DNA of 64,000 nt from a virus: IMG/VR virus record IMGVR_UViG_3300028800_000061, positions 1 to 64,000 of that record. One strand, 5' to 3'. How positions within the stretch are numbered: position 1 is the stretch's first letter; each line of letters opens with the position of its first letter. This document shows, piece by piece, positions 38,970-53,237 of the stretch. The position numbers and the translations under genes were made by a program. The notes beneath the pieces were generated by a model. That model had not been told where the DNA came from. It did no database searches and worked only from the letters and a program-made list of their open reading frames with translations.

Positions 38970-39043
38970 AGGGATGTAGCTCAACTTGGTAGAGTAGCGG
39001 TCTCCAAAACCGCTGGTTGTGGGTTCGAATCCTGCCATCCCTG
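38970..39043 (+). tRNA. tRNA-Trp(CCA)
   Basis: Manual cloverleaf; GCGGT CT-CCA-AA ACCGC. Confidence 0.93.
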
Positions 39044-39169
39044 CGGAGCACCACCCTTCGGGGGGAATGTGCCTGGCACACCTTGATAACTCCACAGCGG
39101 AAACACCATGATTAACCGTTCCCGTCGCGCGGCGTGGCCAGCCGGCCGGTCGCGCGACGGGAACACCAT

Positions 39170-39243
39170 GGGGCTTTAGCGCAGCCCGGTAGCGCGCCTC
39201 GTTCGCATCGAGGAGGCCGCCGGTTCGAATCCGGCAAGCTCCA
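39170..39243 (+). tRNA. tRNA-Ala(CGC)
   Basis: CCTCG TT-CGC-AT CGAGG; G3:U70. Confidence 0.92.
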
Positions 39244-39321
39244 CGGCGGGAAGTTGAGGGTTCGAATCCCTCCTGGTCCACGCATTGGGCTGGTACCTCA
39301 ATTGGCAGAGGCCCGCATCTT
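39244..39321 (+). ncRNA. Circularly permuted tRNA-like element (3' half before 5' half)
   Basis: T arm 39256-39272, acceptor strands 39273-39279 / 39287-39293, D arm 39296-39311, closing stem GCGGG/CCCGC. Confidence 0.65.
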
Positions 39322-39394
39322 GGGACTGTAGCTCAGCTGGTAGAGCACCTGCTCGGCAGGCAGGGGGTCCGCGGTTCAAATCCGCGCAGTTCCA
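39322..39394 (+). tRNA. tRNA-Ala(GGC)
   Basis: CCTGC TC-GGC-AG GCAGG; G3:U70; C33. Confidence 0.9.
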
Positions 39395-39536
39395 CCGTCC
39401 CGGTTGCGGCATGCCGCACGATGGGGCAAGCGGTGTGCTGCCGCCAGCAACGTGTACGCAGTAAGGGCGAGCGGCCCGGAACTGGCTCCGTGACGACGGG
39501 GCAAAGCCGGGCGGCGGCAGTACGGGCCGTCTTTCA

Positions 39537-39613
39537 GGGGATGTAGCTCAGCTGGGTAGAGCAGCCGCCCTGCAAGCGGCAGGTCATCGGTTCGACTCCG
39601 TTCATCTCCACCA
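39537..39613 (+). tRNA. tRNA-Ala(TGC)
   Basis: GCCGC CC-TGC-AA GCGGC; encoded CCA; C33. Confidence 0.92.
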
Positions 39614-39709
39614 GGTGCCCGGTCTCGTGGCCTAAGCCGCCACGGGGCAGGCGGGCACCCCGTGGCCGGCGTGCCTCCCGGGTGGCTCCCGGGCCGCCGG
39701 CCACGTGAA

Positions 39710-39783
39710 CGGGATGTAGCGCAAGCTGGTAGCGCACCTGGTTTGGGACCAGGGGGTCGTCGGTTCGATTCCGGCCATCCCGA
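39710..39783 (+). tRNA. tRNA-Pro(TGG)
   Basis: CCTGG TT-TGG-GA CCAGG. Confidence 0.94.
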
Positions 39784-39787
39784 CTAC

Positions 39788-39861
39788 GGCTACTTAGCTC
39801 AGTCGGTACGAGCGCGCCCCTGAAAAGGGCGAGGGCCCCCGTTCGATCCGGGGAGTAGCCA
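39788..39861 (+). tRNA. tRNA-Phe(GAA)
   Basis: CGCCC CT-GAA-AA GGGCG. Confidence 0.93.
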
Positions 39862-39865
39862 CTGT

Positions 39866-39937
39866 GCGGGCGTGGCCGAATGGTTTAGGCACCTGGCTTC
39901 CAACCAGGACACGCAGGTTCGATTCCTGTCGCCCGCT
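39866..39937 (+). tRNA. tRNA-Gly(TCC)
   Basis: CCTGG CT-TCC-AA CCAGG. Confidence 0.93.
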
Positions 39938-39941
39938 CTCC

Positions 39942-40014
39942 GCGCCGCTAGCTCATCTGGCAGAGCAGCAGACTCTTAATCTGCGGGTGCGGGGTTCGAG
40001 TCCCTGGCGGCGCA
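39942..40014 (+). tRNA. tRNA-Lys(CTT)
   Basis: GCAGA CT-CTT-AA TCTGC. Confidence 0.94.
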
Positions 40015-40036
40015 CACAGAAACGGGGGTGAAGGCG

Positions 40037-40567
40037 ATGAGGCCGGCGATCCTGATCGACGTGGATGAGGTCCTCAACCCCTCGTTCCGCTGCAACCCCC
40101 CGTACTGCCGGTGCCACCCCCACTGGATCCGGGCGTTCGCTTACGCCCGGGACGGGCAGAAACTCAAGCTGATCCTCAACCCGGCGCACGGCCCGGCCCT
40201 GCTGCAGCTGGCCGCCGACACGGGTGCGGAGCTCGCCTGGTGCACATCCTGGGAGGACCAGGCCAACGACGACATCGGACCCCGGATCGGCCTGCCCCGG
40301 CTGCCGGTGGTCCCGTACCCGCCCCGCCCGAAAACAGGCCCTGGCTCAGTACTGGCCGTGGGCGCGTGGAAAGCACGCCACGCCGTGGCATGGGCCGCAC
40401 GCCGCCCGTTCGCATGGTTCGAGGATGAGCCCGACGCGGGCCCGGAATGCTTCCGGCTCCTCGGTGCCGCACCGCACCTGGTGATACCGGTGGACCGCCG
40501 GACCGGGCTGACCGTGGGCCACATGAACGAGGCTTGGGACTGGCTGAGCGAGCTTACGCGGGCGTAA
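40037..40567 (+). CDS. HAD-domain phosphatase (Swiss-Army-Knife RNA-repair type)
   Basis: LIDVDEVLNP, WCTSW, FAWFEDE, GLT. Confidence 0.82.
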   Translation: MRPAILIDVDEVLNPSFRCNPPYCRCHPHWIRAFAYARDGQKLKLILNPAHGPALLQLAADTGAELAWCTSWEDQANDDIGPRIGLPRLPVVPYPPRPKTGPGSVLAVGAWKARHAVAWAARRPFAWFEDEPDAGPECFRLLGAAPHLVIPVDRRTGLTVGHMNEAWDWLSELTRA

Positions 40568-40632
40568 CCCAATCTGGCAGAGGTGGCAGTCTCAAAAGCT
40601 GCACGGTGCGGGTTCGAGTCCCGCCGCCCGCA
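40558..40632 (+). tRNA. tRNA-Leu(CAA), short variable arm
   Basis: GCAGT CT-CAA-AA GCTGC. Confidence 0.88.
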
Positions 40633-40633
40633 C

Positions 40634-40933
40634 TCACCTGACGAAGGTGAACATCTCGGTCAGGTGCAGGATATCGAGTAGCCGGCGGACAGCCTGTGAT
40701 GGTGCCCGCAACGCCAGCGTGCTGCCTGTCTCTGCCGCCAGTTGTCGGGCGGCGAGTAGCACGCGGATCCCTGATGCGTCCATGAATGACACTGCGGACA
40801 TGTCCGCGATCAGGTCAACCGGGCCGCCGTAGAGGACAGTGCTCATGGCGTTCCCCATGGCAGCGCAGGTGGCGATATCAATCTCGCCGGAGATGCGAAC
40901 TGTGGTGATGGTGGACAGCAGAAGGTCTGTCAT
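40634..40933 (-). CDS. STAS-domain anti-sigma-factor antagonist
   Basis: SGEIDIAT, DMSAVSFMDASG, VRRLLDI. Confidence 0.88.
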   Translation of the reverse strand: MTDLLLSTITTVRISGEIDIATCAAMGNAMSTVLYGGPVDLIADMSAVSFMDASGIRVLLAARQLAAETGSTLALRAPSQAVRRLLDILHLTEMFTFVR

Positions 40934-41091
40934 TGCGGGGGCCCTCCGCACTTGTGCAGCGCGATAGGGCTGGGTCCGGACCCTTTGGCGGCGACTATAT
41001 CCCGATCATGAGCGGGGTTGTCCAGGCACATTGGCAGAGTCTAGGCGATTAGGCAATTGCAAGATGTTCCGGCCCGTAGGGCTGGGAGTAA

Positions 41092-41163
41092 TGCCGGGTG
41101 GGGTAATTGGCAGCCCGCGAGGCTCTGATCCTCGTCGTGTAGGTTCGAGTCCTGCCCCGGCAG
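41092..41163 (+). tRNA. tRNA-Gln(CTG)
   Basis: CGAGG CT-CTG-AT CCTCG; U1:A72. Confidence 0.92.
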
Positions 41164-41175
41164 CTAAGATGTTGC

Positions 41176-41247
41176 GCCCCCGTAGCTCAGTGGTAGAGCG
41201 ACCACCTCGTAAGTGGTAGGCCAGCGGTCCGATTCCGGTCGGGGGCT
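41176..41247 (+). tRNA. tRNA-Thr(CGT)
   Basis: ACCAC CT-CGT-AA GTGGT; atypical T-loop TCCGATT. Confidence 0.88.
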
Positions 41248-41264
41248 CAGGGAGACCGGCAGAG

Positions 41265-41292
41265 ACGCCCTGTCCTGGCCAGGACAGGGCGT
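41265..41292. repeat. 28-bp perfect palindrome
   Basis: ACGCCCTGTCCTGG|CCAGGACAGGGCGT. Confidence 0.9.
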
Positions 41293-41395
41293 GCGATACC
41301 GGAACTGTCTCCCAGGTCCCGGCCAGGAGATGGCCACCTGGTCAAGGAAGCCAAGTCCTGTATCATGGCGCTACGGTCATCAAACCTGTTGACTG

Positions 41396-41466
41396 CGGCG
41401 CCGGCGGGATTCGAACCCACACCCAAACCATACGACTGGCATGCTCATCCATTGAGCTACGGCGCC
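41396..41466 (-). pseudogene. Antisense tRNA-like gene, undetermined anticodon
   Basis: Intact acceptor, D and T arms; anticodon arm TGCCA GTCGTA TGGTT has a 6-nt loop. Confidence 0.7.
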
Positions 41467-41601
41467 TGAAGCTGGCCCGTACGACCGTGTCCGCCAAGGC
41501 CTGGTCGTCGGGCCTTCTTCCATCTTGGGTGGCTGATGGACAGGGACCGGATTCTCCCACCCGGCTTGGCGCACGGAACCGGTGTACGTGTTGCGGGCCG
41601 C

Positions 41602-41675
41602 GTCCTCGTAGACCAATGGCAGGAGTCACGGCCCCGAGGAGGCCGGCAGTGTGCGTTCGAATCGCACCGAGGACA
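41602..41675 (+). tRNA. tRNA-Leu(GAG), short variable arm
   Basis: CGGCC CC-GAG-GA GGCCG; C33. Confidence 0.85.
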
Positions 41676-41676
41676 C

Positions 41677-42024
41677 ATGAGCGATGACTACGACCTGACC
41701 TCCGTGCATTACGCCGAGCCGGTTTTCGGCATGCAGATGGGCACCGGGGTCCTCCGCACCCACGGCGCCTCGGCTTGCGCCGGCCGGGCCTGCTGCATCC
41801 ACAACCCGTCCGCCCATCACATGCGCGGCTGGGAGATGAACTGGCGCGGTGACCTGCGCGTAATGGAGCGGATCTGCCCGTGCCATGGCGTCGGCCATCC
41901 GGACCCGGATGATGTGGCGTACCGGCGCTTGATCGGCCGCGGCGGTGGCACCCACGGCTGCCATGGGTGCTGCCATGCCGGCCATGCGCCGGATGATGGG
42001 ACCGGGCACTCTATGCCCCTGTAG
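41677..42024 (+). CDS. Cys/His-rich phage-type protein
   Basis: CCIHNPSAHHM...MERICPCHGVGHPDPDD...HGCHGCC. Confidence 0.72.
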   Translation: MSDDYDLTSVHYAEPVFGMQMGTGVLRTHGASACAGRACCIHNPSAHHMRGWEMNWRGDLRVMERICPCHGVGHPDPDDVAYRRLIGRGGGTHGCHGCCHAGHAPDDGTGHSMPL

Positions 42025-42091
42025 CTCAGTTGGCAGAGCAGCCCCCTTGTAAGGGGCAGGTCGCAGGTTCAAATCCTTGTCAGGGGCTCCA
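42015..42091 (+). tRNA. tRNA-Thr(TGT)
   Basis: GCCCC CT-TGT-AA GGGGC; encoded CCA. Confidence 0.9.
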
Positions 42092-42149
42092 TAACCGGCC
42101 AGACTGTTACAATGCGTGACATCCTGGGTTTTCCTGGCCGGAGGCCGCA

Positions 42150-42485
42150 GTGACCAAGCAACGATCCCCCTGGCTTCTCATCCTGATCTTGGTTGCCAGT
42201 TACGCGATCGGCCACCTGGCCGGCCTGATCCTCACCGCCGTGATCGCGTTCCTCGCCTACCTGGTGTCCGTTCGGATGAACCCGCGGATCGCGTGCCGCA
42301 AATGCGACGGCAAAGGCCGGTTCAACGGGTGGCTGTTCACCTGGGTGTGGCACTTCTGCCACCACTGCGCAGGCAAGGGCGCCGGAATCCGGTGGGGTGC
42401 GGCACGGTGGGGGACTGAGGCCGCCCGCGCTGAAGCGCTCCGGAACCAAACCACGCTGAAGAACGCGACCACTCGACGCCGCTGA
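42150..42485 (+). CDS. Membrane protein with CxxCxGxG Zn finger
   Basis: SD GGAGG; two TM; CRKCDGKG, CHHCAGKG. Confidence 0.72.
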   Translation: MTKQRSPWLLILILVASYAIGHLAGLILTAVIAFLAYLVSVRMNPRIACRKCDGKGRFNGWLFTWVWHFCHHCAGKGAGIRWGAARWGTEAARAEALRNQTTLKNATTRRR

Positions 42486-42503
42486 TTAGAAGGAACCGCC
42501 GCT

Positions 42504-42992
42504 TTGGGTAGCAAGCATGAACGGCACGCACGATCCAAGGAGTGGGACACCCCACCAGCCCGATCCGCTGAGGTGCGTGCCGCTGCGGTAGCAGACCAGG
42601 GCGAGCCGGTGAAACGGACCCCGGCCCGGAAGGACACAGCCCGCTGGTGCGGCGGTCACACCGGTCGTGAACACGCCCCGCATCTGATGACACCGGCAGA
42701 AACGACTGGGTGGCGGCAGCGCGCATGCGGGTGGGTGACCACCTGGGACCGCAGGGAACGCGACTACAAGATCGCATGGCGTTGCGGGCACTGGGTGCGG
42801 TGCGGGCAGTGCGGCCGGACCCTCCGTGACATCGGATCCCTGGAGCTCACCGAGTGCAAGACTTACCCCGGGACCAAGGTGCAGCGCGCCGCAGCCGAGG
42901 CAGACCTGGCCGACTACCGGGTGCGCAGGGCGAAATGGGCCAGGCGCAGGCTGGTGATCAACGGGCCACAGGGATACCGCAGATCCCGTTAG
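42504..42992 (+). CDS. Cys/His Zn-binding protein
   Basis: SD AAGGA; RWC...H.PHL...WRCGH...CGQCG; paralogous to 51267-51716. Confidence 0.7.
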   Translation: MGSKHERHARSKEWDTPPARSAEVRAAAVADQGEPVKRTPARKDTARWCGGHTGREHAPHLMTPAETTGWRQRACGWVTTWDRRERDYKIAWRCGHWVRCGQCGRTLRDIGSLELTECKTYPGTKVQRAAAEADLADYRVRRAKWARRRLVINGPQGYRRSR

Positions 42993-43177
42993 CCCGGTTC
43001 GACGTAGTAGCCGACACCAGGAAAGCCGCACACAGGGCAGTCGTTCTGCGTGTGATCCGATCCGGGGATGCCGGCGCACGCTGCCACCAGCAGGGCACGG
43101 TACGCCGCGGTGTACTTCTCGCCTGTGCGCTCCATGCGCTCCCGGACGAGATCCTTGAGTTCGCCGCTACCTGTCAT
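42989..43177 (-). CDS. Small hypothetical protein
   Basis: KDLVRERMERTGEKYTAAYRAL. Confidence 0.55.
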   Translation of the reverse strand: MTGSGELKDLVRERMERTGEKYTAAYRALLVAACAGIPGSDHTQNDCPVCGFPGVGYYVEPG

Positions 43178-43370
43178 CGTTCATCCGCTGCCCGGCGGCC
43201 GCTGCCCGCGCTCCGGTCGCCGTGATTGCTGGGCGATGACAGTAGGTGGTGAACGCGATCCCGAACTTTGCGGTTCGTGGGGTCCTTGTCCTCGGCGCTG
43301 ACGTGGACGCGGGCCGCGGCAGCTCGGAGAGTGGCAGGCGCTCTCAGCCAACCGGAAGTGTAACAGCCGA

Positions 43371-43446
43371 TGGGGAATAGGGTAATCAGGCAGCCCGCCA
43401 GGTTTTGGCCCTGGGTCTTGTGGAGGTTCGAGTCCTCCTTCCCCAG
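43371..43446 (+). tRNA. tRNA-Gln(TTG)
   Basis: CCAGG TT-TTG-GC CCTGG. Confidence 0.88.
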
Positions 43447-43469
43447 CTAGCAACGGGGAGGGACCGTCA

Positions 43470-44027
43470 ATGTCGAACCGGTTCGTGACGGCAGACCTGC
43501 ATCTGATGCACATCGCTCAGTCCGGCCGCCGTGGTTACGCCACTGCCGCCGAGCACGATGAAGCGATCATCACCACATGGAATGAGATCGTGCGACCGCG
43601 CGACATGGTGATCGTGCTCGGCGATGTCGGCGTGGCCCCATCCCGGCTGTTCCTGCCGCTGATCGGGCAGCTGCACGGCACCCTGGACTTGATCTCCGGC
43701 AACCACGACGAGGTACACCCGATGCACCGTGGCGCGGCGGCGAAGATGGCGGCGTGGATAGGGCCCGGACGGTTCCGGTCGATCGGATCCCAGGGCATGC
43801 TGCGGGCTGGCACGCACCGGGTAATGCTGTCCCACTTCCCGTACAAGGGTGATCACACAGCGAAAGACCGGTGCGCGGAGTGGCGTCCCCGGGATGAAGG
43901 GTTGCCGTTGTTCCACGGGCACACGCATTTCAAGGATCGCGGCGGCGGCCAGGTGGTCCATGCCGGCTGGGATGCGTGGGGAGCACCTGTCCCAGTCGAT
44001 ACGCTGTGTGCGTTGATTGCCGCGTAA
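43470..44027 (+). CDS. Calcineurin-like metallophosphoesterase
   Basis: ADLH, LGD, GNHD, SHFP, HGHTH. Confidence 0.92.
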   Translation: MSNRFVTADLHLMHIAQSGRRGYATAAEHDEAIITTWNEIVRPRDMVIVLGDVGVAPSRLFLPLIGQLHGTLDLISGNHDEVHPMHRGAAAKMAAWIGPGRFRSIGSQGMLRAGTHRVMLSHFPYKGDHTAKDRCAEWRPRDEGLPLFHGHTHFKDRGGGQVVHAGWDAWGAPVPVDTLCALIAA

Positions 44028-44033
44028 ATTTAG

Positions 44034-44106
44034 GCCGCTGTAGCTCAGCCGGCAGAGCACCTGCATGGTAAGCAGGAGGTCCCGGGTTCGATTCCCGTCA
44101 GCGGCT
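44034..44106 (+). tRNA. tRNA-Thr(GGT)
   Basis: CCTGC AT-GGT-AA GCAGG. Confidence 0.92.
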
Positions 44107-44157
44107 CGGCGGGGGAGAGTTAACCAATCTAGCGCCTGGACGCTCTCCCCCGCGCGT

Positions 44158-44230
44158 GTGGATGTGGCTCAGCTGGTAGAGCATCACCTTGCCAAGGTGA
44201 GGGTCGCGAGTTCGAATCTCGTCATCCACT
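44158..44230 (+). tRNA. tRNA-Gly(GCC)
   Basis: TCACC TT-GCC-AA GGTGA. Confidence 0.95.
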
Positions 44231-44300
44231 CCGGTTGCCCAGTTCCCCGTAACTTGGTATAGTTGAGCAAAACTAGGTTACGGGAAGCTGGGATCTTGAT

Positions 44301-44528
44301 ATGGCAGAGCTGCAGGCCATCCTCGCCATCCAAATCGCCGGGGACCGTCCCGGCGGCGGGCGCACCTACTCCCACGAAGAAATCCTCGACGGGGCCGACT
44401 GGGCAACACGTGCGCAAGTACTGGATCACATGCTCAGCCAGATTGACTTGCGATACCGCACAGCCACAGAGACCTCACGAGCCGATATGACCATCCTCAA
44501 TTTCACCGTCGAGCCGAACAACCTGTGA
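44301..44528 (+). CDS. Hypothetical protein
   Basis: Protein-like ORF after hairpin 44238-44293. Confidence 0.5.
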   Translation: MAELQAILAIQIAGDRPGGGRTYSHEEILDGADWATRAQVLDHMLSQIDLRYRTATETSRADMTILNFTVEPNNL

Positions 44529-44566
44529 TGGAACGGCAACTCCGCGGTGGCGAGGTGGGCGGCTAG

Positions 44567-45244
44567 TTGCTGTACCTCGCAAACCCGTCAACGACGCCTA
44601 TACGGCAAGCCATGACCAGCTATGAACTCGGCTGCATCATCACCCCCAGGCAAGGCAACCGCCTCCCCAGGGAAGCGCTCTGGGGTGCCGACAACGGGTG
44701 CGGCCCTGGAAAAAACGGCATGATCGGCCAAGGGTTCCCCGGCTACGAGCCCTTCCTGGGAATGCTCCAAGACCACGCCGACTACGCCGACGATTGCTTG
44801 TTCGCGGTAGCACCCGATGTGGTAGGCGATGCGGACGGGACGCTTAAACGGTCCAAGTGGATGCTCGAATGGATCCGTTACGCCGGCTACCCGGCCGCGC
44901 TCGCCGCTCAAGACGGACTGGAGAACCTGACGGTGCCCTGGGATGATTTCGACGCCTTGTTCATCGGCGGCAGCACAGCGTGGAAACTTGGCGCCGCGGC
45001 CCGCCGGCTGATCGCCGAAGCGAACCGGCGGAACAAGTGGGTTCACATGGGCAGGGTCAATACACTGAAACGTCTCCGGTACGCGGCCACGGTCGGATGT
45101 CACAGCGTAGATGGCACGTTCCTCACATTCGGCCCGGATATCAACCTGCCGCGGCTGCTCCGGTACCTCCGGATCGTCAACACGCAACCAACTTTGTGGG
45201 CGTCGAGCTGGCCGCCGCCGCTCCCGTTGACGGTCGCAGCATGA
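44567..45244 (+). CDS. Queuine tRNA-ribosyltransferase (TGT/DpdA)-like protein
   Basis: ADNG, APDVVGD, AQDG, FIGGST, VHMGRVN, SVDGT, matching the TGT-fold pattern. Confidence 0.7.
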   Translation: MLYLANPSTTPIRQAMTSYELGCIITPRQGNRLPREALWGADNGCGPGKNGMIGQGFPGYEPFLGMLQDHADYADDCLFAVAPDVVGDADGTLKRSKWMLEWIRYAGYPAALAAQDGLENLTVPWDDFDALFIGGSTAWKLGAAARRLIAEANRRNKWVHMGRVNTLKRLRYAATVGCHSVDGTFLTFGPDINLPRLLRYLRIVNTQPTLWASSWPPPLPLTVAA

Positions 45245-45831
45245 CCGGCCAGATCCATGTAGCAGGCGAGGGTCAGCAGCTTGCCTTGCCGGGAACGCTA
45301 TGGCCAGCAGGCTGCGACCGCGGGCAAGGAGACCCGCTGTTCTTCGGGAAGCTTAAAAAGGACCAGGCGAACGACCTGATCGCAGCGTTCGGTCACCCAC
45401 TCGGCCCGTTCACCCGCCCGTTCGGGTACCAGGCATGGGGCCTGGCGATCGATGGGCAAGCCGTCGCTGTCGCGATATCCGGATCAACTGTCGGCGCGAC
45501 CTCTGCCGGATACAAGCGCAGGCAAGTTGTCGACCTCGCCCGGATCGCACGCCACCCAGACCACCCAGGAGTCATGAGGGTCATGCTGCGCTTGTGGCGG
45601 GACTACCTCGCGCCGCGGTGGGATTACGGAGACGGGCAGGTGCAAGCCGCTGTCTCCTACGCACTGCCCGGCAAAGCAGGGAACCTGTACCGGTTCGACG
45701 GGTGGAAGCTTCACGGGTACTGCAAACCGTGGGCTGGCGGCGGCACCTGGAGCAAACCGTCGAAAGCGAACGGGATGGCTGATGGGGTAAAGAAGCTGTT
45801 CTACTACGAGTACCCGCAGCGGGTGGCGTGA
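45241..45831 (+). CDS. Mom-like GNAT-fold protein
   Basis: AVAISG...DLARIA...AVSYA...GNLYRFDGWK. Confidence 0.6.
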   Translation: MTGQIHVAGEGQQLALPGTLWPAGCDRGQGDPLFFGKLKKDQANDLIAAFGHPLGPFTRPFGYQAWGLAIDGQAVAVAISGSTVGATSAGYKRRQVVDLARIARHPDHPGVMRVMLRLWRDYLAPRWDYGDGQVQAAVSYALPGKAGNLYRFDGWKLHGYCKPWAGGGTWSKPSKANGMADGVKKLFYYEYPQRVA

Positions 45832-46919
45832 TGCTCGCCACTGAGGCAGATGTACTGCGGACCCTGAGAACCGGCACTTACACCGTCAGCGAACTGTACG
45901 ACCTGTGTGAACAGCGAACAGTGGTCGGCCGGGATGGTGGCCAGGACCCCATCCCGGCCCACTCAGGTGATCTCCGGTGGAAGCGCCGCGTTCGCGGCGC
46001 TCTGGAGACTCTGCGCCGGGCCGGCCGGGCCGAGCGGATCGACCGGACCTGCTGGGCAATCCAGGGCACACCCCGCCAGCCGGCCCGCCTGCTGCTGATC
46101 GTGACCGGCGCAACCCCGCGTGACTTCGAACTGCGATTGCAGGCCGCGGCCGAACTGCTCGCCGAACTGGACGAGCCTGCCGACCTGGTGCTGTGCGACC
46201 CGCCGTACGGACTGCGCCGCGGCCGCGGCCACTACACCGACGGCAACGGGTACCGCCGCGACCACACCAGCGTGATCGGCGGCTACGTCGACGTCGACCC
46301 GGGCGAGTACTCCGACTTCACCCACGATTGGATCCGGGCCGCAGCCGCTGCGCTCCGGCCGGCCGGGCAGCTCGCCACGATCACCGGACCGCAGCGTGCC
46401 GCGATCGTGCAGTGCGCCGCCGAGCAGGCCGGGCTCACCTGGGTCAGTACCATCGCCGCCCGGCGCACTTTCCCGCTGGCCACACTGCGCCGGCCAGCCG
46501 CAGCGCATTGGGCCATCACGGTCATGTGCCGCAACGCGCTGAGCAACCCTCGCCGGGTGTTCAACCCGCCACCCGATCTGCCCAGGGCCCGCAGCGGCCA
46601 CCCTTACCCGCTGGACTGGTGGGCTGACGGCAACGGCCGGGCCGACCGCCCCGGGCTGCTCCGCTACGACAACAGCCTCCCGCTTCCCCTTGTCCTGCGG
46701 GCGGTCACCGCGTTCAGTAACCGCGGCGAGCACGTCGTAGACCCGTTCCTCGGCGCGGGCACAACCGCTGTCGCCTGCTGGAAAACCGGCCGGCGCTTCA
46801 CCGGCAGCGACCTGAATCCAGCCGCCGTCCGCTTCGCAGCCGCACGGCTGCTCGATGAGCACGCCTGGCCGGATGAGCGCGAGCCAGGATTGTTTCCCGC
46901 AATGGATGTCGCGCCGTGA
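45828..46919 (+). CDS. N4/N6 DNA methyltransferase (beta-type order) with N-terminal wHTH
   Basis: DLVLCDPPY precedes VVDPFLGAGTT. Confidence 0.85.
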   Translation: MMLATEADVLRTLRTGTYTVSELYDLCEQRTVVGRDGGQDPIPAHSGDLRWKRRVRGALETLRRAGRAERIDRTCWAIQGTPRQPARLLLIVTGATPRDFELRLQAAAELLAELDEPADLVLCDPPYGLRRGRGHYTDGNGYRRDHTSVIGGYVDVDPGEYSDFTHDWIRAAAAALRPAGQLATITGPQRAAIVQCAAEQAGLTWVSTIAARRTFPLATLRRPAAAHWAITVMCRNALSNPRRVFNPPPDLPRARSGHPYPLDWWADGNGRADRPGLLRYDNSLPLPLVLRAVTAFSNRGEHVVDPFLGAGTTAVACWKTGRRFTGSDLNPAAVRFAAARLLDEHAWPDEREPGLFPAMDVAP

Positions 46920-47461
46920 GCACCGGCCTGGCCGCGATCAACCTGGACCTGATCGAGGACGCGGCGAACATCCTGGCGTGGCGCGGCTGGTGGGAACCCG
47001 GCGATGAGGACAGCTTCGTACCCGACGAGCTCGTCACCGAACTGATCGAGGCTGCCCGGGCTCCTTGCGAGGTCTGCAGCACACCGGAGGGGGTGTGCAG
47101 CACACCGGACGAGGTGGCCGATCACTTCCTCGCCCGCAAACAGGAAGAGTGGGAACGGTCCTGGCCGGCGTGGGCATGCAACTGCGGTCACGTTTACAAA
47201 CTGCTCAATGAAGAGTTCTTCGAGGTCGCAGACAACGGGTTCCACGGCCCGTTCTGCGCCGGCATGGCCGGGGAGCAAGATTGCCCGCACCCATCCTGCG
47301 CGAGCATTCTGCTCGGCGGCCACCTGCCGGGGGATCGCGCCGGGTGCATCCGCCGCGGCAGCAAGAACCGGGTCAAGCACAGCGACGCATGCCGGGGATG
47401 CGGCTGCAAGTTCGCGGATACGATAGCCGACCAGCTCAACCCGCAGCAGGCCCTGTTCTAG
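46916..47461 (+). CDS. Cys-rich hypothetical protein
   Basis: GTGA overlap; several CxxC. Confidence 0.65.
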   Translation: MSTGLAAINLDLIEDAANILAWRGWWEPGDEDSFVPDELVTELIEAARAPCEVCSTPEGVCSTPDEVADHFLARKQEEWERSWPAWACNCGHVYKLLNEEFFEVADNGFHGPFCAGMAGEQDCPHPSCASILLGGHLPGDRAGCIRRGSKNRVKHSDACRGCGCKFADTIADQLNPQQALF

Positions 47462-47565
47462 AAGATCCTGGCAGTAAAGTCGTGCACCTGCGCTCAGCGG
47501 GTTGCGGCACAATCGTGCGGGCGGTGATCTGAATTAGTCCATCGGGATCACCGCCCGCGCGCCTT

Positions 47566-47640
47566 GCCCCTCTAGCCCAATCCGGCAGAGGCGCCACGTT
47601 CAGGGCGTGGAGGTTCGGGGTTCGACTCCCCGGAGGGGCA
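47566..47640 (+). tRNA. tRNA-Leu(CAG), short variable arm
   Basis: CCACG TT-CAG-GG CGTGG. Confidence 0.88.
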
Positions 47641-47644
47641 CTTG

Positions 47645-47732
47645 GGAGGGGTCGCCTAGTCGGCCTATGGCGCGTCACTGCTAATGACGTTGGGCATTGC
47701 GTCCCTCGCGGGTTCGAATCCCGCCCCCTCCG
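47645..47732 (+). tRNA. tRNA-Ser(GCT)
   Basis: CGTCA CT-GCT-AA TGACG; long variable arm. Confidence 0.93.
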
Positions 47733-47735
47733 CAC

Positions 47736-47828
47736 GGAGACGTCGCGCAGTGGCCTAGCGCTCTAGTCTTGAAAACTAGCAGAGCACGGGAGTGTCTCTC
47801 GTGGGTTCGAATCCCACCGTCTCCTCCA
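47736..47828 (+). tRNA. tRNA-Ser(TGA)
   Basis: CTAGT CT-TGA-AA ACTAG; long variable arm; encoded CCA. Confidence 0.93.
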
Positions 47829-47829
47829 A

Positions 47830-47903
47830 GGGCATGTAGCTCAGCCGGTTAGAGCACTCCCCTGATAAGGGAGAGGCCGGAGGTTCAACTCCTCCTGTGC
47901 CCA
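47830..47903 (+). tRNA. tRNA-Ile(GAT)
   Basis: CTCCC CT-GAT-AA GGGAG. Confidence 0.93.
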
Positions 47904-47994
47904 CTGCCAGCAGGCCACTGCGGCCGGGGTTGTCGCAGCGACAACAGGGCCGGGAAGCCCCCGGGCCGCGGGCCTGCTGGCCACGACGGGAGCG

Positions 47995-48264
47995 GTGGTG
48001 TCAGGGCGGCAGCGGCAGCGGAACCGGCTCGGGCGGCGGCAGGGGTGGATCTGCCCGTGGTGCCGCCTCCCGATCACCCGCGCCCAGTTCGCGGATGCCA
48101 CCCGCGACCATGTGATCCCGAAGTCCCACGGAGGCACTGCGGTACTGCGGAACCTCCAGTTGCTGCACGGCGAGTGCAACGCGGAGAAAGCGAGCCGGTG
48201 CCTGGGTTGCCCCCGGTGCGTCCCTGGCGAGATAGCTCAGCCGGTCAGAGCGTCCCGCTCATAA
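47995..48264 (+). CDS. HNH endonuclease
   Basis: CPWC...TRDHVIPKSHGG....NLQLLHGECNAEK. Confidence 0.88.
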   Translation: MVSGRQRQRNRLGRRQGWICPWCRLPITRAQFADATRDHVIPKSHGGTAVLRNLQLLHGECNAEKASRCLGCPRCVPGEIAQPVRASRS

Positions 48265-48302
48265 CGGGATGGTCGCAGGTTCAAGTCCTGCTCTCGCTAC
48301 CA
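48226..48302 (+). tRNA. tRNA-Met(CAT), elongator-type
   Basis: TCCCG CT-CAT-AA CGGGA; GGC... acceptor; encoded CCA (Ile2 identity not excluded). Confidence 0.88.
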
Positions 48303-48376
48303 GTACGCCAACATGCAGTCCTAGATAGGGGAGGTGAACGGGTTGAAACCCTGCGGTAAACAGATACGCATCGCAG

Positions 48377-48450
48377 GCCCTGTTAGCTCAATTGGATAGA
48401 GCAGCGGACTTTTAATCCGCGAGTTCTGGGTTCGAGTCCCAGGCGGGGCA
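48377..48450 (+). tRNA. tRNA-Lys(TTT)
   Basis: GCGGA CT-TTT-AA TCCGC. Confidence 0.93.
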
Positions 48451-48454
48451 CAAT

Positions 48455-48526
48455 GCGCTGTTAGCTCAGTGGATAGAGTGACTGCCTTCTAAGCAGGGGA
48501 GCGGGGTTCGAATCCCTGACGGCGCG
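48455..48526 (+). tRNA. tRNA-Arg(TCT)
   Basis: ACTGC CT-TCT-AA GCAGG; A20. Confidence 0.88.
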
Positions 48527-48541
48527 CAAAGCACAAGGCAA

Positions 48542-48615
48542 GCCCTGGTGGGGTAATTGGCCAGCCCGCCACCCTCTCACGGTGGAGACTGCCGGTTCGA
48601 ATCCGGTCCGGGGTA
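48542..48615 (+). tRNA. tRNA-Glu(CTC)
   Basis: CCACC CT-CTC-AC GGTGG. Confidence 0.9.
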
Positions 48616-48616
48616 C

Positions 48617-48692
48617 GGCGCGGTAGGCAAAATGGAGAAGGCCGCCAGACTTTCAACCTGGTGACTTGCGGGTTCGAGCCCCGTCCGCGCTA
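48617..48692 (+). tRNA. tRNA-Glu(TTC)
   Basis: CCAGA CT-TTC-AA CCTGG. Confidence 0.85.
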
Positions 48693-48706
48693 CTATGGGA
48701 TCACGA

Positions 48707-48780
48707 CGCGGGGTGGAGCAGCTCGGTAGCTCGGTGGGCTCATAACCCACAGGTCGCAGGTTCAAATCCTGTCCCCGCTA
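48707..48780 (+). tRNA. Initiator tRNA-fMet(CAT)
   Basis: C1 mismatch, three G:C pairs GGG CT-CAT-AA CCC. Confidence 0.95.
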
Positions 48781-48895
48781 CCGCCGTGCCGGGTCGGCTC
48801 CGGTCGCGGCTAATTACGGCTGGCAGACGTGCTAGGGCCCGTGGCGGATTGGGGATCTAGCCGACCCCGCGTGAAGCGCGACGGGCACCAACCTT

Positions 48896-48967
48896 TCCCC
48901 CGTAGCTCAATAGGCAGAGCGTCCGGCTGTTAACCGGTTGGTGTTGGTTCAAGTCCAGCCGGGGGAG
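48896..48967 (+). tRNA. tRNA-Asn(GTT)
   Basis: TCCGG CT-GTT-AA CCGGT. Confidence 0.9.
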
Positions 48968-48971
48968 CGAT

Positions 48972-49046
48972 GGTCCTGTAGAGCAGGTTGGAGTGCTCGC
49001 CACCCTGTCAAGGTGGAGGTCGCGGGTTCAAATCCCGTCGGGACCG
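48972..49046 (+). tRNA. tRNA-Asp(GTC)
   Basis: CCACC CT-GTC-AA GGTGG. Confidence 0.95.
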
Positions 49047-49050
49047 CTAA

Positions 49051-49122
49051 ACCCGGTTAGCTCAGTGGCAGAGCACCACGATGACAGCGTGGGGGTCGGA
49101 GGTTCGGTTCCTCCACCGGGTA
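49051..49122 (+). tRNA. tRNA-Val(GAC)
   Basis: CCACG AT-GAC-AG CGTGG. Confidence 0.88.
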
Positions 49123-49314
49123 CAGGCACCTGGGAGCCTGGCTTCAAATGGCAGGAGCAAAGTGATAACGCGCCGAAAGGCTATGCCCACTCCGGTGGGC
49201 GGGTAGCGGTCGCCCAGGTGCCGTTGCACACCGAGAGGATCGCCTTGCTGACCGGGTATGTCTTGCTGCCGGGTGATTGTGACAGCCCGGCCGCGGCAGC
49301 GTTAGGCTCCCGGC

Positions 49315-49869
49315 ATGCTTCTCTCTGACCGGGACATCGCCGACGCGATCGCGGCCCGCGACCTGGTGGTAGACGGCGAGCTGGCCAGCGACTCATTCCA
49401 GCCTGCCAGCCTCGATCTGCACCTTGGCGCCGAGTTCCGGGTGTTCCTCAGTCACCGGGTCGCTTGCATCGACACTGCCGGCGGCCAGGGGGATCTCACT
49501 GAACCGGTAGTGATCTCCGACGGTGAGCCGTTTGTCCTGCACCCCGGCGAGTTCGCCCTCGGCTGCACTGTGGAGGCCATCACTCTCTCCGATGATCTGG
49601 CCGCCCGGCTCGAAGGCAAATCCAGTCTCGGCCGCCTCGGCCTGCAAGCGCACTCCACCGCCGGGTGGATTGACCCAGGGTTCAGCGGGCAGATCACCCT
49701 GGAGTTGTCCAATGTCGCCCCGGTACCGATCAAACTGTGGCCTGGCATGAAAATCGGCCAGCTGTGCTTGTTCCGCCTGGGCGCCCCGGCGTTGCGCCCG
49801 TACGGGCACCCGGGCCTCGGCTCCCGTTACCAGGGGCAGCGAGGCCCGGTGCCGTCCCGGGCTGGTTAG
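49315..49869 (+). CDS. dcd: dCTP deaminase
   Basis: [51 protein letters not shown]. Confidence 0.95.
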
Positions 49870-50216
49870 TGGCTGGAGTAGGAGCTGGTGGTCCGTCGCC
49901 ACCGTTCCGTCCACGCCCACTGGTCTAGCACCAGTTGGGTGAACGACTGGTCATCCATCTGCATGGTGTCCGTCACGGACCACCTGAGCATCTCGATCGC
50001 CGCGTCGTAGTCGGCGGTGTGGTTCTCCGGCTCGGGCAGGTCGGCGTGCCGGTCCGCCTTCTGGCCGGCCCGCAGTTCGGCGATCCGGTCCTGGTGCCAG
50101 CCGATCATCTGCTCCCGGTAGGCGACGATAGCCTCCTGGTAGGTGGCGAGGTGCGCGGCCCGGTTGGCTTCCAGCGCCTCGAGCAGCCTGGCGCGGTCAA
50201 CGGTTACTGGTCTCAT
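49866..50216 (-). CDS. Phage-type hypothetical protein
   Basis: NRAAH...[15 protein letters not shown]...LVLDQWAW; SD lies antisense in tRNA-Arg acceptor stem. Confidence 0.75.
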
Positions 50217-50221
50217 TTCTT

Positions 50222-50295
50222 GCTCCCATAGCTCAGTGGATTAGAGCGCCGCCCTCCGGAGGCGGGTGCCGCAGGTTCGAGTCCTGCTGGGGGCG
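50222..50295 (+). tRNA. tRNA-Arg(CCG)
   Basis: CCGCC CT-CCG-GA GGCGG. Confidence 0.92.
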
Positions 50296-50298
50296 CGC

Positions 50299-50727
50299 TT
50301 AACTGCTCAGCGGATCTGTGCGCGGTGCCGGCCACTCGGGGGCCGCTGTGAAATCGGCCGGGTCGACGCTGCCGAGCTCGCAGACGCGGGTGACCAGGTC
50401 GATGTACGCGGCGCTGGGATCGTCGCCGCGGCCGATCGGCCACCGTTCCTGGTTGGCCCGGTGCCAGAAATCCTGGCACTCGATGTCCGATGCGGCCCAG
50501 TCCGTCCAGGGCGTCTCGGTCAGCATGTGCGGGTCCACGGGGAACGCCAGCCAACTGCGACCCTCGTAGGTGCCGTTGTACCTGGCCTGCACAACAACCG
50601 CAGGCTCGGCTTCTGGCCGGTTACCGAAACCACCTGCGGTGATGTAAAGCTTCGCGGTCAGCATTATTTTTCCGCCGGGTGCACCGGGCCACTCAACGAA
50701 GATGCTTCGCTCATTCACACCGGGCAT
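50299..50727 (-). CDS. Hypothetical protein
   Basis: ARYNGTYEG..WLAF...IGRG; fits exactly between two tRNAs. Confidence 0.65.
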   Translation of the reverse strand: MPGVNERSIFVEWPGAPGGKIMLTAKLYITAGGFGNRPEAEPAVVVQARYNGTYEGRSWLAFPVDPHMLTETPWTDWAASDIECQDFWHRANQERWPIGRGDDPSAAYIDLVTRVCELGSVDPADFTAAPEWPAPRTDPLSS

Positions 50728-50743
50728 TGTTTCACGTATCGTT

Positions 50744-50816
50744 ACCCCCGTGGCCCAACGGATAAGGCGCCAGACTACGGATCTGGAGTGTGCCGGTTCA
50801 ACTCCGGCCGGGGGTA
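50744..50816 (+). tRNA. tRNA-Arg(ACG)
   Basis: CCAGA CT-ACG-GA TCTGG. Confidence 0.92.
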
Positions 50817-50863
50817 CAAAGGCTTTCCGGTCTGAACGTCCCATTCCGCCGGCTGCACGGCTG

Positions 50864-51034
50864 GTGCAGATCAGCATGCCTTACGCCACGTTCGCTGTGG
50901 CATTCGCCGATGGTGTGATTGTCGCTGCCGCGCCCATCGCCCAGTGGGCAGTAGGTAAAGATGTGAGCACTGTCAAGGACTACTACCAGCGGAAAGGTGC
51001 TGTGTTCGCGCACGTCCCAGGCACACCCGGTTAG
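50864..51034 (+). CDS. Small phage-type protein
   Basis: PYATFAV...AAAPIAQWAVGK...YYQRKG; start uncertain. Confidence 0.55.
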   Translation: MQISMPYATFAVAFADGVIVAAAPIAQWAVGKDVSTVKDYYQRKGAVFAHVPGTPG

Positions 51035-51096
51035 CTCACCGGCAGAGCGCCTCGTTCACACCGAGGAGGCAGAGGGGTCGGCACCTTCACCGGGTA
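51025..51096 (+). tRNA. tRNA-Val(CAC)
   Basis: CCTCG TT-CAC-AC CGAGG; degenerate T-loop GTCGGCA. Confidence 0.8.
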
Positions 51097-51130
51097 CAGG
51101 TCACCGTAAACTAGCCGGGTAACCGGCCTT

Positions 51131-51209
51131 GGTGGGTGTAGCTCAGTCAGGCCAGAGCGCCCGGTTGTGATCCGGGTACGCATCGGTTCGAATCCGGTCA
51201 CCCACCCCA
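51131..51209 (+). tRNA. tRNA-His(GTG)
   Basis: CCCGG TT-GTG-AT CCGGG; G-1:C73; encoded CCA. Confidence 0.93.
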
Positions 51210-51266
51210 AAAGAGCCCTGCTGTGCGGGGCGGAGTGACAATGCGGGAAGGCTGGACCGGGCAAGC

Positions 51267-51716
51267 ATGGGCAAGGGCCAGGGTGCGGGCAACCCAACCG
51301 GCAAAGGACGCGCACCTAGGAAGCCCGTAGCGCGCACGGACAGGAAACGCTGGTGCAAAGACCAGCATGGTGTCAAGCATGTCCCCCATCTCGTTTTCAG
51401 GCCCCGGGGCGTGGCATACACGGAGTGCCGGCTAGCACGCGATTTTGAGGTATGGTGCCGGGATGGCTGGGTGTGCATGCACAGAGACGAGTGCGCCCGA
51501 TGCGGCCAGGTGCTCCGGCCCCGGCTCGGCGGCATTCCCCGCGAGGAATGCCCGACCTTTCAGCAAGCGATGAAAGACGAAACCCGTGAGATCCTCGCCG
51601 ACCCGCTCGTGCTGATCCGCATCCGCCAGGCGCAAGCTGTGGTGGCGGCCGGGAACATTACCCGCAGCGTGCAAGCAGTCCGGTCACTTCTGCGTGTCCC
51701 CGGGAACCGCACATGA
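51267..51716 (+). CDS. Zn-binding protein with antitoxin-like C-terminal tail
   Basis: RWC...H.PHL...WVCMH..CARCG; tail ETREILADP...IRQA...GNITRSVQAVR. Confidence 0.65.
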   Translation: MGKGQGAGNPTGKGRAPRKPVARTDRKRWCKDQHGVKHVPHLVFRPRGVAYTECRLARDFEVWCRDGWVCMHRDECARCGQVLRPRLGGIPREECPTFQQAMKDETREILADPLVLIRIRQAQAVVAAGNITRSVQAVRSLLRVPGNRT

Positions 51717-52114
51717 CCACCTGGCAACCCGGTGACATCTACGAGGATTGCGCGTTCCACCCGGTGCTCTGCTACCTGGTTATCCGCCGCCGCCGCGAGG
51801 GCAGCCCGTGGTGGCGGCTCCTGCTCGCCGACGACTGGGATCTGTGCGGGATATCGCTGCTCGACGGCTCCCGGCCGCGCACATGCTCAGTGAAACACTG
51901 CGCACCGCAGCGGATCACCCTCGACCAGGCGCTGAGCATGCGCGGCACATGGGAGCAAGGCCACCGGCGCCCAGAAGATCACGCGTCAGCGGAGGCTGAG
52001 CTGGATGCGATGCTCACCAGCATGCGCACAATCGATGCGCTGCCGGATGCCACCGGTAAACGGGTCGTGGCGTGGCTCATGTCCCGGTTCAGGGTCAGCT
52101 GCGGCTGTGATTGA
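51713..52114 (+). CDS. Hypothetical protein
   Basis: PGDIYEDCAFHPVLC...GISLLDGS.PR.CS..HC. Confidence 0.7.
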   Translation: MTTWQPGDIYEDCAFHPVLCYLVIRRRREGSPWWRLLLADDWDLCGISLLDGSRPRTCSVKHCAPQRITLDQALSMRGTWEQGHRRPEDHASAEAELDAMLTSMRTIDALPDATGKRVVAWLMSRFRVSCGCD

Positions 52115-52123
52115 TTTGAGCTT

Positions 52124-52205
52124 GGCAGGTTGCCCGAGCGGCCAAAGGGAACGGTCTGTAAAACCGTCGTGTAATGCTGCGCTGGTTCGAATCCAGCACC
52201 TGCCA
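52124..52205 (+). tRNA. tRNA-Tyr(GTA)
   Basis: ACGGT CT-GTA-AA ACCGT; long variable arm. Confidence 0.93.
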
Positions 52206-52207
52206 CG

Positions 52208-53092
52208 ATGAAACCCACCCGCATCCCCTCCGGGCATGTCCCTCAGGTGTGCTGGCGCCTGCGAGGCCGCTGGCTCGTGGCCTACCTCGACATCAACACC
52301 CGGGCCCGGTGGAAAGTGCTCCGCGGGTTCAGCGCGTGCCTCCGGTTTGGCCCGCTTGACCCGCCAGACCCTGATGACCCGTACTGCTACCGGTCACCGT
52401 GCTGGGGGTTCACCCTCGATGTCCAGTCAGCCGATGACGCACCGAACAGGCTGCACCTGATGGGCCGCCGGTACATGGCCATCATCGGCCTGCCGGGCCG
52501 GGAGCGGGTGTTCACGGAGACCGGCCGGCTGGGCCTGGCGGTCATCGGCGAGTGGAAGCGCGGCCGGCTGCGGATCATGCGGTCACAGGCGTGGGACTGG
52601 CGGGCCGATGAGTGGGCGGGCCGGTGGAAGGTGCTCGCCGTCCACCCGGCCGACCACCGGGAACGGTGGGAGCGCGCCCACCCAGCGCAGGCGGCGCAGA
52701 ATGCGGCCCGGCTCCGCCGCAGGCACATGTGGGCGGTCTTCAGCGCGGACGCCCTCCCGGACCGCTGGTACGTGTGCCCGGGGCACATAGACCACGCGCG
52801 GGCCCGGCGGGTCACATGCACGGCCTGCGGCCCGCTGAAGGCAGCGGAGGTGTTCGATCCGGGCCGGTGGTGGCTCACCCCCTGGACTCACGCGCAGATC
52901 GCAGTACTTGGCGCCGGGCAGAACAACCCAGCCGGCCGGCCGTACTTCCCGTACTTGTGCCGCGGCGGACTGCACGACGAGCGGGAGGAACCTGGCCCCC
53001 TGCTGATCCCGCACCTGAGCGGCTGGCGATGCCCGGACAGTGCGTGCCCGTACACGCAAAACTGGGCGCACGCTACCGCAGTCCCGGGCTAG
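52208..53092 (+). CDS. Hypothetical protein
   Basis: 294 aa filling the inter-tRNA space; C-terminal PYLC...GWRCP...C.Y.QNWAH. Confidence 0.6.
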   Translation: MKPTRIPSGHVPQVCWRLRGRWLVAYLDINTRARWKVLRGFSACLRFGPLDPPDPDDPYCYRSPCWGFTLDVQSADDAPNRLHLMGRRYMAIIGLPGRERVFTETGRLGLAVIGEWKRGRLRIMRSQAWDWRADEWAGRWKVLAVHPADHRERWERAHPAQAAQNAARLRRRHMWAVFSADALPDRWYVCPGHIDHARARRVTCTACGPLKAAEVFDPGRWWLTPWTHAQIAVLGAGQNNPAGRPYFPYLCRGGLHDEREEPGPLLIPHLSGWRCPDSACPYTQNWAHATAVPG

Positions 53093-53158
53093 TAGCTCAG
53101 CGGATAGAGCGCCTGCCTCCTAAGCAGGATGCCGCCAGTTCGATTCTGGCCTAGCCCA
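53086..53158 (+). tRNA. tRNA-Arg(CCT)
   Basis: CCTGC CT-CCT-AA GCAGG. Confidence 0.93.
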
Positions 53159-53162
53159 CGAT

Positions 53163-53237
53163 GGCCGTGTGACCGAGTGGCACAGGTAGCAGCCTGCAAA
53201 GCTGCGCACCCCGGTTCGAATCCGGGCACGGCTTCCA
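53163..53237 (+). tRNA. tRNA-Cys(GCA)
   Basis: GCAGC CT-GCA-AA GCTGC; U73; encoded CCA. Confidence 0.93.

Follow-up and report, generated by a model that had tools for sequence, protein, structure and literature searches.

What does it mean for a phage when a protein-coding gene ends inside the transfer RNA (tRNA) gene that follows it? This question is raised by the tRNA array of IMG/VR record IMGVR_UViG_3300028800_000061 (G000), an uncultured virus of 159,823 bp with a guanine-cytosine (GC) content of about 65% and an estimated completeness of 98%, whose first 64 kb (positions 1 to 64,000) make up the window analyzed here. The tRNA genes that ARAGORN detected in this window, 36 in total, all belong to one + strand array (38970-53237), in which the tRNAs are spaced 0-4 nucleotides (nt) apart. 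Phage tRNA arrays are currently investigated as modules of counter-defence and codon supply, and, to our knowledge, hardly anything is known about the expression of the genes embedded in them. In the array of G000, 5 of about 20 such cargo genes, and only these, have their stop codon within a tRNA.

Five Genes with Stop Codons inside Downstream tRNAs

Five + strand open reading frames (ORFs) stop 7-39 nt inside an intact downstream tRNA. These overlaps had been listed in a preliminary description of the sequence, and direct sequence reading confirmed every coordinate. The gene of a HAD-family phosphatase (HAD_SAK_2-like, 40037..40567) shares its last 10 nt with positions 1-10 of tRNA-Leu(caa) (40558..40633, 76 nt, 55 bits), which supplies its stop: the gene ends in ...ACG CGG GCG TAA, where the last G of ACG is position 1 of the tRNA and TAA (40565-67) is positions 8-10. 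The gene orf41677 (41677..42024), encoding a Cys/His-rich protein, occupies the whole space between two tRNAs and ends with a TAG on positions 8-10 of tRNA-Thr(tgt) (42015..42091, 60 bits). The same positions provide the TAG of orf50864 (50864..51034, 56 codons) in tRNA-Val(cac) (51025..51097, 45 bits), while orf52208 (52208..53092, 294 codons), which fills the space between tRNA-Tyr and tRNA-Arg(cct) (53086..53159, 72 bits), takes its TAG from acceptor positions 5-7 of the latter. The deepest overlap belongs to an HNH endonuclease gene (47995..48264), which reads 39 nt into tRNA-Met(cat) (48226..48302), at 72 bits the best-scoring tRNA of the array. Residues 78-89 of the nuclease are encoded by the tRNA, and its TAA (48262-64) is T36-A37-A38, i.e., the last anticodon base and the next two.

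tRNA integrity was measured as the bit score against RF00005 (gathering score 29), and the scores of 45-72 bits for the five overlapped tRNAs rule out the idea that they are decaying. The five genes, coding for a phosphatase, a Cys/His-rich protein, a nuclease, and two ORFans, have no function in common. As controls on the same strand, a metallophosphatase cargo gene (43470..44027) has its own stop 6 nt before tRNA-Thr(ggt), and another cargo gene (51713..52114) has its own stop 9 nt before tRNA-Tyr.

Coding Evidence for the Five Genes

Coding potential was scored with a codon log-odds model trained on long ORFs of G000. For each of the five ORFs, the claimed frame scored best of the six frames (48.5, 12.7, 6.8, 11.8, and 59.0), with the other frames at or below about 0, and the GC content at third codon positions (GC3) was 0.84-0.87 in four of the five. 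Of all ORFs that enter a tRNA of the array, clearly positive scores were limited to these five.

The HAD gene has a weak match to PF18143 and 33 homologues, and its C-terminus is of usual length when compared with 16 of them. HAD_SAK_2-like genes also recur in or beside phage tRNA arrays of unrelated types (40037-40567 of the window, L120 8001-8471, L138 8001-8432, and L003 5129-5665), a recurrence that hints at some role connected with tRNA or RNA end repair. The HNH protein matches PF01844 (E 1.6e-9) over profile positions 1-46 of 47, its domain being complete by residue 67 and followed by 22 extra residues; it has 24 PHROG matches, 22 of which are named HNH endonuclease, and no HNH homologues sharing words were found. 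The family of orf41677 has no match in Pfam or PHROG; it is large, with 2024 matches in a representative library (1091 below 1e-10) and at least 398 viral loci, its motifs are IHNPS.HHM, MER.C, GHPDPD, and HGC.GCC, and it probably represents a metal-binding domain. The conserved core ends in ...HGC.GCC and is followed here by a tail of 16 aa; in 79 viral homologues, the median tail has 8 aa (interquartile range 5-19.5). The remaining two are ORFans: no relative of orf52208 was found in phage records, IMG/VR, or a set of 5.8 billion proteins, its sole match (L002) being the same phage from another run with 1 mismatch, and none of orf50864 in Atlas or IMG/VR. The public gene call for orf50864 is 50702-51034 (110 aa), and this gene, the least certain of the five, is the only one that might be doubted.

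It could be argued that some of these ORFs are not genes, or end elsewhere, and represent no more than frames left open by the scarcity of stops in GC-rich DNA. Within 17 kb, 189 ORFs reach 40 aa or more, spurious ones also stop at tRNA positions 8-10 (e.g., 43246-43380 and 49935-50231), and neither orf50864, with its 56 aa, nor orf52208 has homologues. We regard such an artefact as very unlikely, considering that all five ORFs are the best of six frames with the GC3 values given above, that homologues exist for HAD, HNH, and orf41677, and that orf52208 keeps its score of 59 over 294 codons. Moreover, tRNA spacers in this array are 0-4 nt, and without these genes it would contain non-coding gaps of 200-880 nt.

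Overlap Frequency in Comparison with Other Phage Arrays

Overlap frequency was compared between G000 and 21 other phage tRNA arrays, obtained from HAD and dCTP-deaminase searches, large IMG/VR records, and Streptomyces phage Frankenweenie, by applying one home-made, tRNA-blind gene caller together with ARAGORN to all of them. A close junction was defined as a same-strand gene-to-tRNA junction within 120 nt. Five of the eight close junctions of G000 overlap, compared with 4 of 84 in the other arrays (Fisher p ~1e-4), a comparison that rests on a crude gene caller and on a baseline about half of which comes from one phage family and is hence not independent. When G000 is pooled with the two records that share its tRNA order (L003 and G002), 8 of 13 close junctions overlap (p ~4e-6); spurious second junctions were removed by hand for these three records, and the baseline may keep up to four extra non-overlapping counts. 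The overlaps thus occur far above the frequency of other phage arrays, which speaks against the chance level that the preliminary description had named as grounds for abandoning its proposal.

The four baseline overlaps measure -40, -26, -4, and -2 nt, while 19 baseline stops lie 0-10 nt and 13 lie 11-20 nt upstream of the tRNA. GC content as the only cause was ruled out, as the 65-67% GC arrays of L120, L343, L344, and Frankenweenie are tight and show no overlap; all four keep spacers of 3-15 nt, and L120 even shares parts of the tRNA order. Because these equally tight, high-GC arrays lack overlaps, GC content and tightness together are insufficient as well. Most arrays avoid overlap while tolerating spacers of 3-15 nt, which suggests that it normally matters for a stop to lie outside the tRNA. 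A literature search found no paper on stop codons inside the tRNAs of phage arrays.

Origin of the Stop Codons

According to a caveat of the preliminary description, the conserved TAG or TAA at tRNA positions 8-10 might be captured incidentally by an incoming frame. This turned out to be the proximate cause. A stop triplet occupies positions 8-10 in 27 of the 36 tRNAs, mostly as T8-A9-G10, with TAA in Leu(caa) and TGA in Cys, and the frame that reads positions 2-4, 5-7, and 8-10 is used by four of the five ORFs (binomial p 0.045). The conserved 5' part of a tRNA is, therefore, a ready-made stop that is unable to mutate away. Of random frames that enter a tRNA, 26% have run into a stop by position 10 and 58% by position 40, compared with 6% and 24%, respectively, in ordinary G000 sequence.

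Relatives with the Same tRNA Order

The tRNA order of G000 is common to two records, L003, a 7.3-kb contig, and G002, a complete genome of 165 kb whose locus L342 was analyzed. The shared order runs Trp, Ala, Ala..., Phe, Gly-tcc, Lys-ctt, Leu-caa, Gln-ctg, Thr-cgt, Leu-gag, Thr-tgt, Gln-ttg, Thr-ggt, Gly.... The flanking proteins of L003 and G002 are barely similar to those of G000. The clade is therefore old. The order of about 36 tRNAs is kept across 38970-53237 of the window, 3301-12874 of L342, and 3486-7208 of L003, while the genes between the tRNAs are almost wholly different; judged from these sequences, the array appears to be an old scaffold with fast cargo turnover.

L003 carries a HAD gene whose product is 61% identical to that of G000, again located before tRNA-Leu(caa) and again ending inside it. 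However, the junction between its conserved C-terminal Leu codon and the tRNA is shifted by one base, so the tRNA is entered in another frame and the TAG falls at positions 18-20. The genes for orf41677 and the metallophosphatase are absent from L003. G002 has none of the five cargo genes, the tRNAs being adjacent at three of the sites and 96-154 nt apart at the other two. It has overlaps of its own: a 68-aa membrane-type ORF stops on positions 8-10 of tRNA-Phe, and an HNH gene (phrog_4234, E 5e-30) extends 38 nt into tRNA-Lys(ctt), where T36-A37-A38 serves as its stop, as in G000.

The preliminary description had proposed to look for homologues that end at the same residue and overlap a tRNA. 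The protein families offer no such pattern, with only 1 of 95 HAD homologues (L003, whose stop position differs) and 0 of 79 orf41677 homologues ending in a tRNA. Four HAD contexts (P0004, P0005, P0006, and P0008) and two orf41677 contexts (P0035 and P0044) were ordinary operons with no downstream tRNA. Because the overlaps of L003 and G002 mostly involve other genes at other tRNAs, the trait belongs to the array of the clade and not to particular genes. A large-terminase search for further clade members returned relatives up to 78% identical that carry one tRNA each, and relatives found through the dCTP deaminase had no arrays.

Antisense Packing and Deep Overlaps of Nuclease Genes

Genes on the opposite strand are packed in the same manner. 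In G000, the stop of a minus-strand STAS-domain gene (40634..40951) touches the 3' end of tRNA-Leu(caa) at 0 nt, and another minus-strand gene (50299..50664) stops 2 nt from the 3' end of tRNA-Arg(ccg). Three opposite-strand stops of G002 lie 0, 0, and 0 nt from tRNA 3' ends, and two of L003 lie 40 and 28 nt inside tRNAs. The read-through tail of the L003 STAS protein is about 20 residues longer than that of G000, its last 13 or so residues being encoded by the reverse complement of tRNA-Lys. Across G000, L003, and G002, flush or overlapping junctions thus occur regardless of orientation and gene identity. Since the logic of ribonuclease P (RNase P) cleavage and non-stop messages is inapplicable to the opposite strand, this antisense packing argues for general compaction. 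As well, 78 of the 202 same-strand gene-gene junctions in G000 overlap.

Two classes of overlap can be distinguished in the data set. Short overlaps of 7-20 nt involve ordinary cargo and are found in this clade only, while all four deep overlaps of 26-40 nt involve nuclease genes: the HNH gene of G000 (PF01844, 47995-48264, + strand), the HNH gene of G002 (phrog_4234, L342 8152-8586), an HNH gene of L147 (phrog_3106, E 9e-24, 1422-1784, - strand), and a PD-(D/E)XK gene of L138 (PF11645, E 2e-18, 6455-6781). These four span three array types, as G000 and G002 share their tRNA order, and two of them stop on T36-A37-A38. In G002, tRNA-Ile and tRNA-Met are adjacent (0 nt) where G000 has its HNH gene, i.e., the gene is sporadically present at a conserved site. 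By sequence, the deep class fits free-standing homing-type nuclease genes that would have settled directly before a conserved tRNA gene. T4 SegB is a free-standing homing endonuclease gene in a phage tRNA cluster. The genes found here resemble SegB-type genes in being small, sporadic nuclease genes between tRNAs, but differ from them in that the nuclease ORFs of four arrays read 26-40 nt into the tRNA.

ORF Starts and Other Features of the Array and Genome

The preliminary description also stated that two ORFs start 2-3 nt after a tRNA. The spacing is as described, while the nature of one of the tRNAs and one of the starts are contested. ATG 41677 lies 2 nt after the discriminator of "tRNA-Leu(gag)" (41602..41676, + strand), an atypical tRNA-like element called by ARAGORN only. 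It was not detected in the RF00005 search and has an irregular anticodon loop with C33, and the GAGGA before ATG 41677 lies in its acceptor 3' strand. ATG 52208 lies 3 nt after the discriminator of tRNA-Tyr, but the start chosen by both the public call and the home-made caller is GTG 52277. Read from ATG 52208, the first 23 codons show a GC3 of 0.83 and outscore both other forward frames. All five genes have a tRNA on their 3' side. For orf41677 this holds for the 5' side too, and likewise for orf52208 if its start is ATG 52208.

All three "tRNA-Leu" of G000 (caa 40558-40633, gag 41602-41676, and cag 47566-47641) are 75-76 nt long and lack the long variable arm. Orthologous Leu positions in G002 (L342) hold class II tRNAs of 83-87 nt, Leu(gag) of L003 is 90 nt, and short Leu-anticodon tRNAs are also present in other phage arrays (L120 and the L143 family). 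A minus-strand tRNA-like gene within the array (41395-41466) was assigned a 2-base "anticodon" (cg) by ARAGORN and scores 47 bits against RF00005, and a similar "???(cg)" call occurs in L009. A promoter and terminator scan found 0 terminators inside the array and few promoter-like sites. One such site (39083-39112) lies just 5' of a basic 23-codon ORF (ATG, 39108-39179) in the tRNA-Trp/tRNA-Ala spacer and ends within its first codons; this ORF stops on positions 8-10 of tRNA-Ala(cgc) and has a neutral coding score. No other small basic ORF, as expected of an ArfA-like mini-gene, ends on a tRNA here.

No DNA-level resemblance to G000 was found among annotated phage records. The closest cellular homologues of its HAD protein come from Actinomadura and relatives, and the host is therefore likely an actinomycete; a scan of genome contigs returned only two Actinomadura chromosomal HAD genes. 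Neither a transfer-messenger RNA (tmRNA) nor an ArfA-like protein (PF03889 match) was found anywhere in the G000 genome. Outside the window, G000 possesses a TnpB/IS605 OrfB-type gene with a Cas12f-like TNB domain (82099-83598) and an adjacent pair of paralogous PAPS-reductase/DUF3440 genes encoding 437 and 444 aa (146508-149236).

Predicted Consequences of RNase P Cleavage and Competing Explanations

In all five cases, the stop ends 7-39 nt downstream of tRNA +1, which by geometry places the RNase P processing site inside the ORF. The upstream fragment left by a cut at this site would lack the stop and 2-3 codons (12 for HNH). The preliminary description had concluded that tRNA maturation and production of these proteins are mutually exclusive. 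The loss of the stop upon cleavage indeed follows from the layout; a selected switch does not find support.

We consider it probable that the overlaps are a tolerated by-product of array compaction and cargo insertion, including the insertion of one selfish nuclease gene. The clade would have packed accessory genes into an old, extremely compact tRNA array, in both orientations and to the nucleotide. In stop-poor DNA of 65% GC, a gene that comes to abut a tRNA in the right frame would use the unchangeable U8-A9-G10 as its stop, and HNH would represent a second class, a homing-type gene inserted before a tRNA and reading deep inside it. A full-length cargo protein would then be made only from a precursor still uncut by RNase P at tRNA +1, and the upstream fragment left after the cut would be a non-stop mRNA for the rescue systems of the host. 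The yield of cargo protein is therefore probably lowered. Most arrays avoid overlap, which suggests that a retained stop normally matters, and the five genes probably bear an expression cost.

Several observations weigh against a mere by-product. Equally tight, GC-rich arrays almost never overlap, which compaction alone leaves unexplained, and the frequency of overlap in comparably compact arrays is dissimilar (4/84 vs. 5/8). Given this general avoidance, its relaxation in the clade (8/13) needs a further cause. Besides, the HAD/tRNA-Leu overlap has been kept across 39% protein divergence, though one point mutation could end it. A rival to the by-product reading is selected coupling, in which the layout is kept to cap or gate the cargo: protein would come from unprocessed precursors only, the cleaved message would be non-stop and its product tagged and degraded, and the level of each protein would be inversely tied to the capacity of RNase P and trans-translation. 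The geometry is right for all five genes, with 2-12 codons lost; overlaps are strongly enriched in the clade over the 21 other arrays, which avoid them despite spacings of 3-15 nt; the HAD gene of L003 keeps its overlap; and read-through past position 40 is seen in 0 of 8 cases, compared with 42% expected for random frames. What makes coupling unlikely, if still arguable, is that the overlap is not conserved within the gene families (HAD 1/95 and orf41677 0/79), that stop position and frame differ in the L003 HAD gene, that opposite-strand genes show the same flush or overlapping packing, that the overlapping genes lack a common function, and that the phage encodes no tmRNA and no ArfA. By the same token, the suggestion that an overload of processing or trans-translation is required for the repair and nuclease proteins to accumulate is unsupported, as the overlap is not bound to particular genes, antisense junctions behave alike, and the phage has neither tmRNA nor ArfA. 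It is rather doubtful that the overlaps act as a clade-specific expression limiter in phages with the 36-38-tRNA array, with output set by a race between ribosome and RNase P and by host trans-translation. Finally, punctuation in the mitochondrial style, where tRNA excision sets the mRNA ends and 3' adenylation completes the stop, would agree with the tRNAs or tRNA-like elements that lie within 0-3 nt of both ends of orf41677 and orf52208. It is nevertheless extremely improbable, since the stops are complete and lie inside the tRNA. Stop completion by adenylation was itself ruled out: A residues added to the five RNase P ends give ACA, AUA, AAA, ACA, and CCA, never a stop.

Comparison with Known Systems and Implications

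In arfA and brfA, an endonucleolytic cut or a terminator inside the ORF yields a stop-less mRNA and places the product under tmRNA control. The rescue of stop-less mRNAs by tmRNA is established, as is the control of arfA by this route (reviews PMC3985003, PMC4131195). The genes studied here are similar in having a predicted cut site inside the ORF upstream of the stop, a likeness of geometry only. Unlike the arfA architecture, which is conserved among homologues, the arrangement is almost never shared by the homologues of HAD and orf41677 counted above. Moreover, the product of arfA is a rescue factor, while the products here are HAD, HNH, a Cys/His-rich protein, and ORFans, with no PF03889 match. 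In animal mitochondria, where protein genes and tRNAs share a single polycistronic transcript, mRNAs end in U or UA and polyadenylation completes UAA (reviews PMC8601606, PMC4394434). Protein genes are likewise butted against tRNAs in G000, with two ORFs flanked on both sides, but a full stop lies inside the tRNA, so processing would remove rather than create it. The E. coli secG-leuU transcript, like other mRNA-tRNA co-transcripts, joins an mRNA to a downstream tRNA, and RNase P, which cuts at tRNA +1, separates the two at the tRNA 5' end (PMC7049720). A common transcript of mRNA and downstream tRNA is also predicted from the layout in G000; however, secG has its own stop upstream of leuU, and its processed mRNA is still translatable.

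The finding thus combines phenomena of known kinds, namely overlaps due to compaction, joint mRNA-tRNA transcripts that RNase P separates, and homing nucleases located in tRNA clusters. For gene annotation, it means that callers or curators that forbid an overlap between a coding sequence and a tRNA would mis-call such genes. If the overlaps did serve as an expression limiter, they would represent, in a bacterial virus, a counterpart of tRNA punctuation that serves control instead of mRNA maturation. Most phage arrays place the stop 3-50 nt outside the tRNA, whereas one clade routinely places it inside, and this natural contrast would let the effects of RNase P and trans-translation on the genes of tRNA operons be tested.

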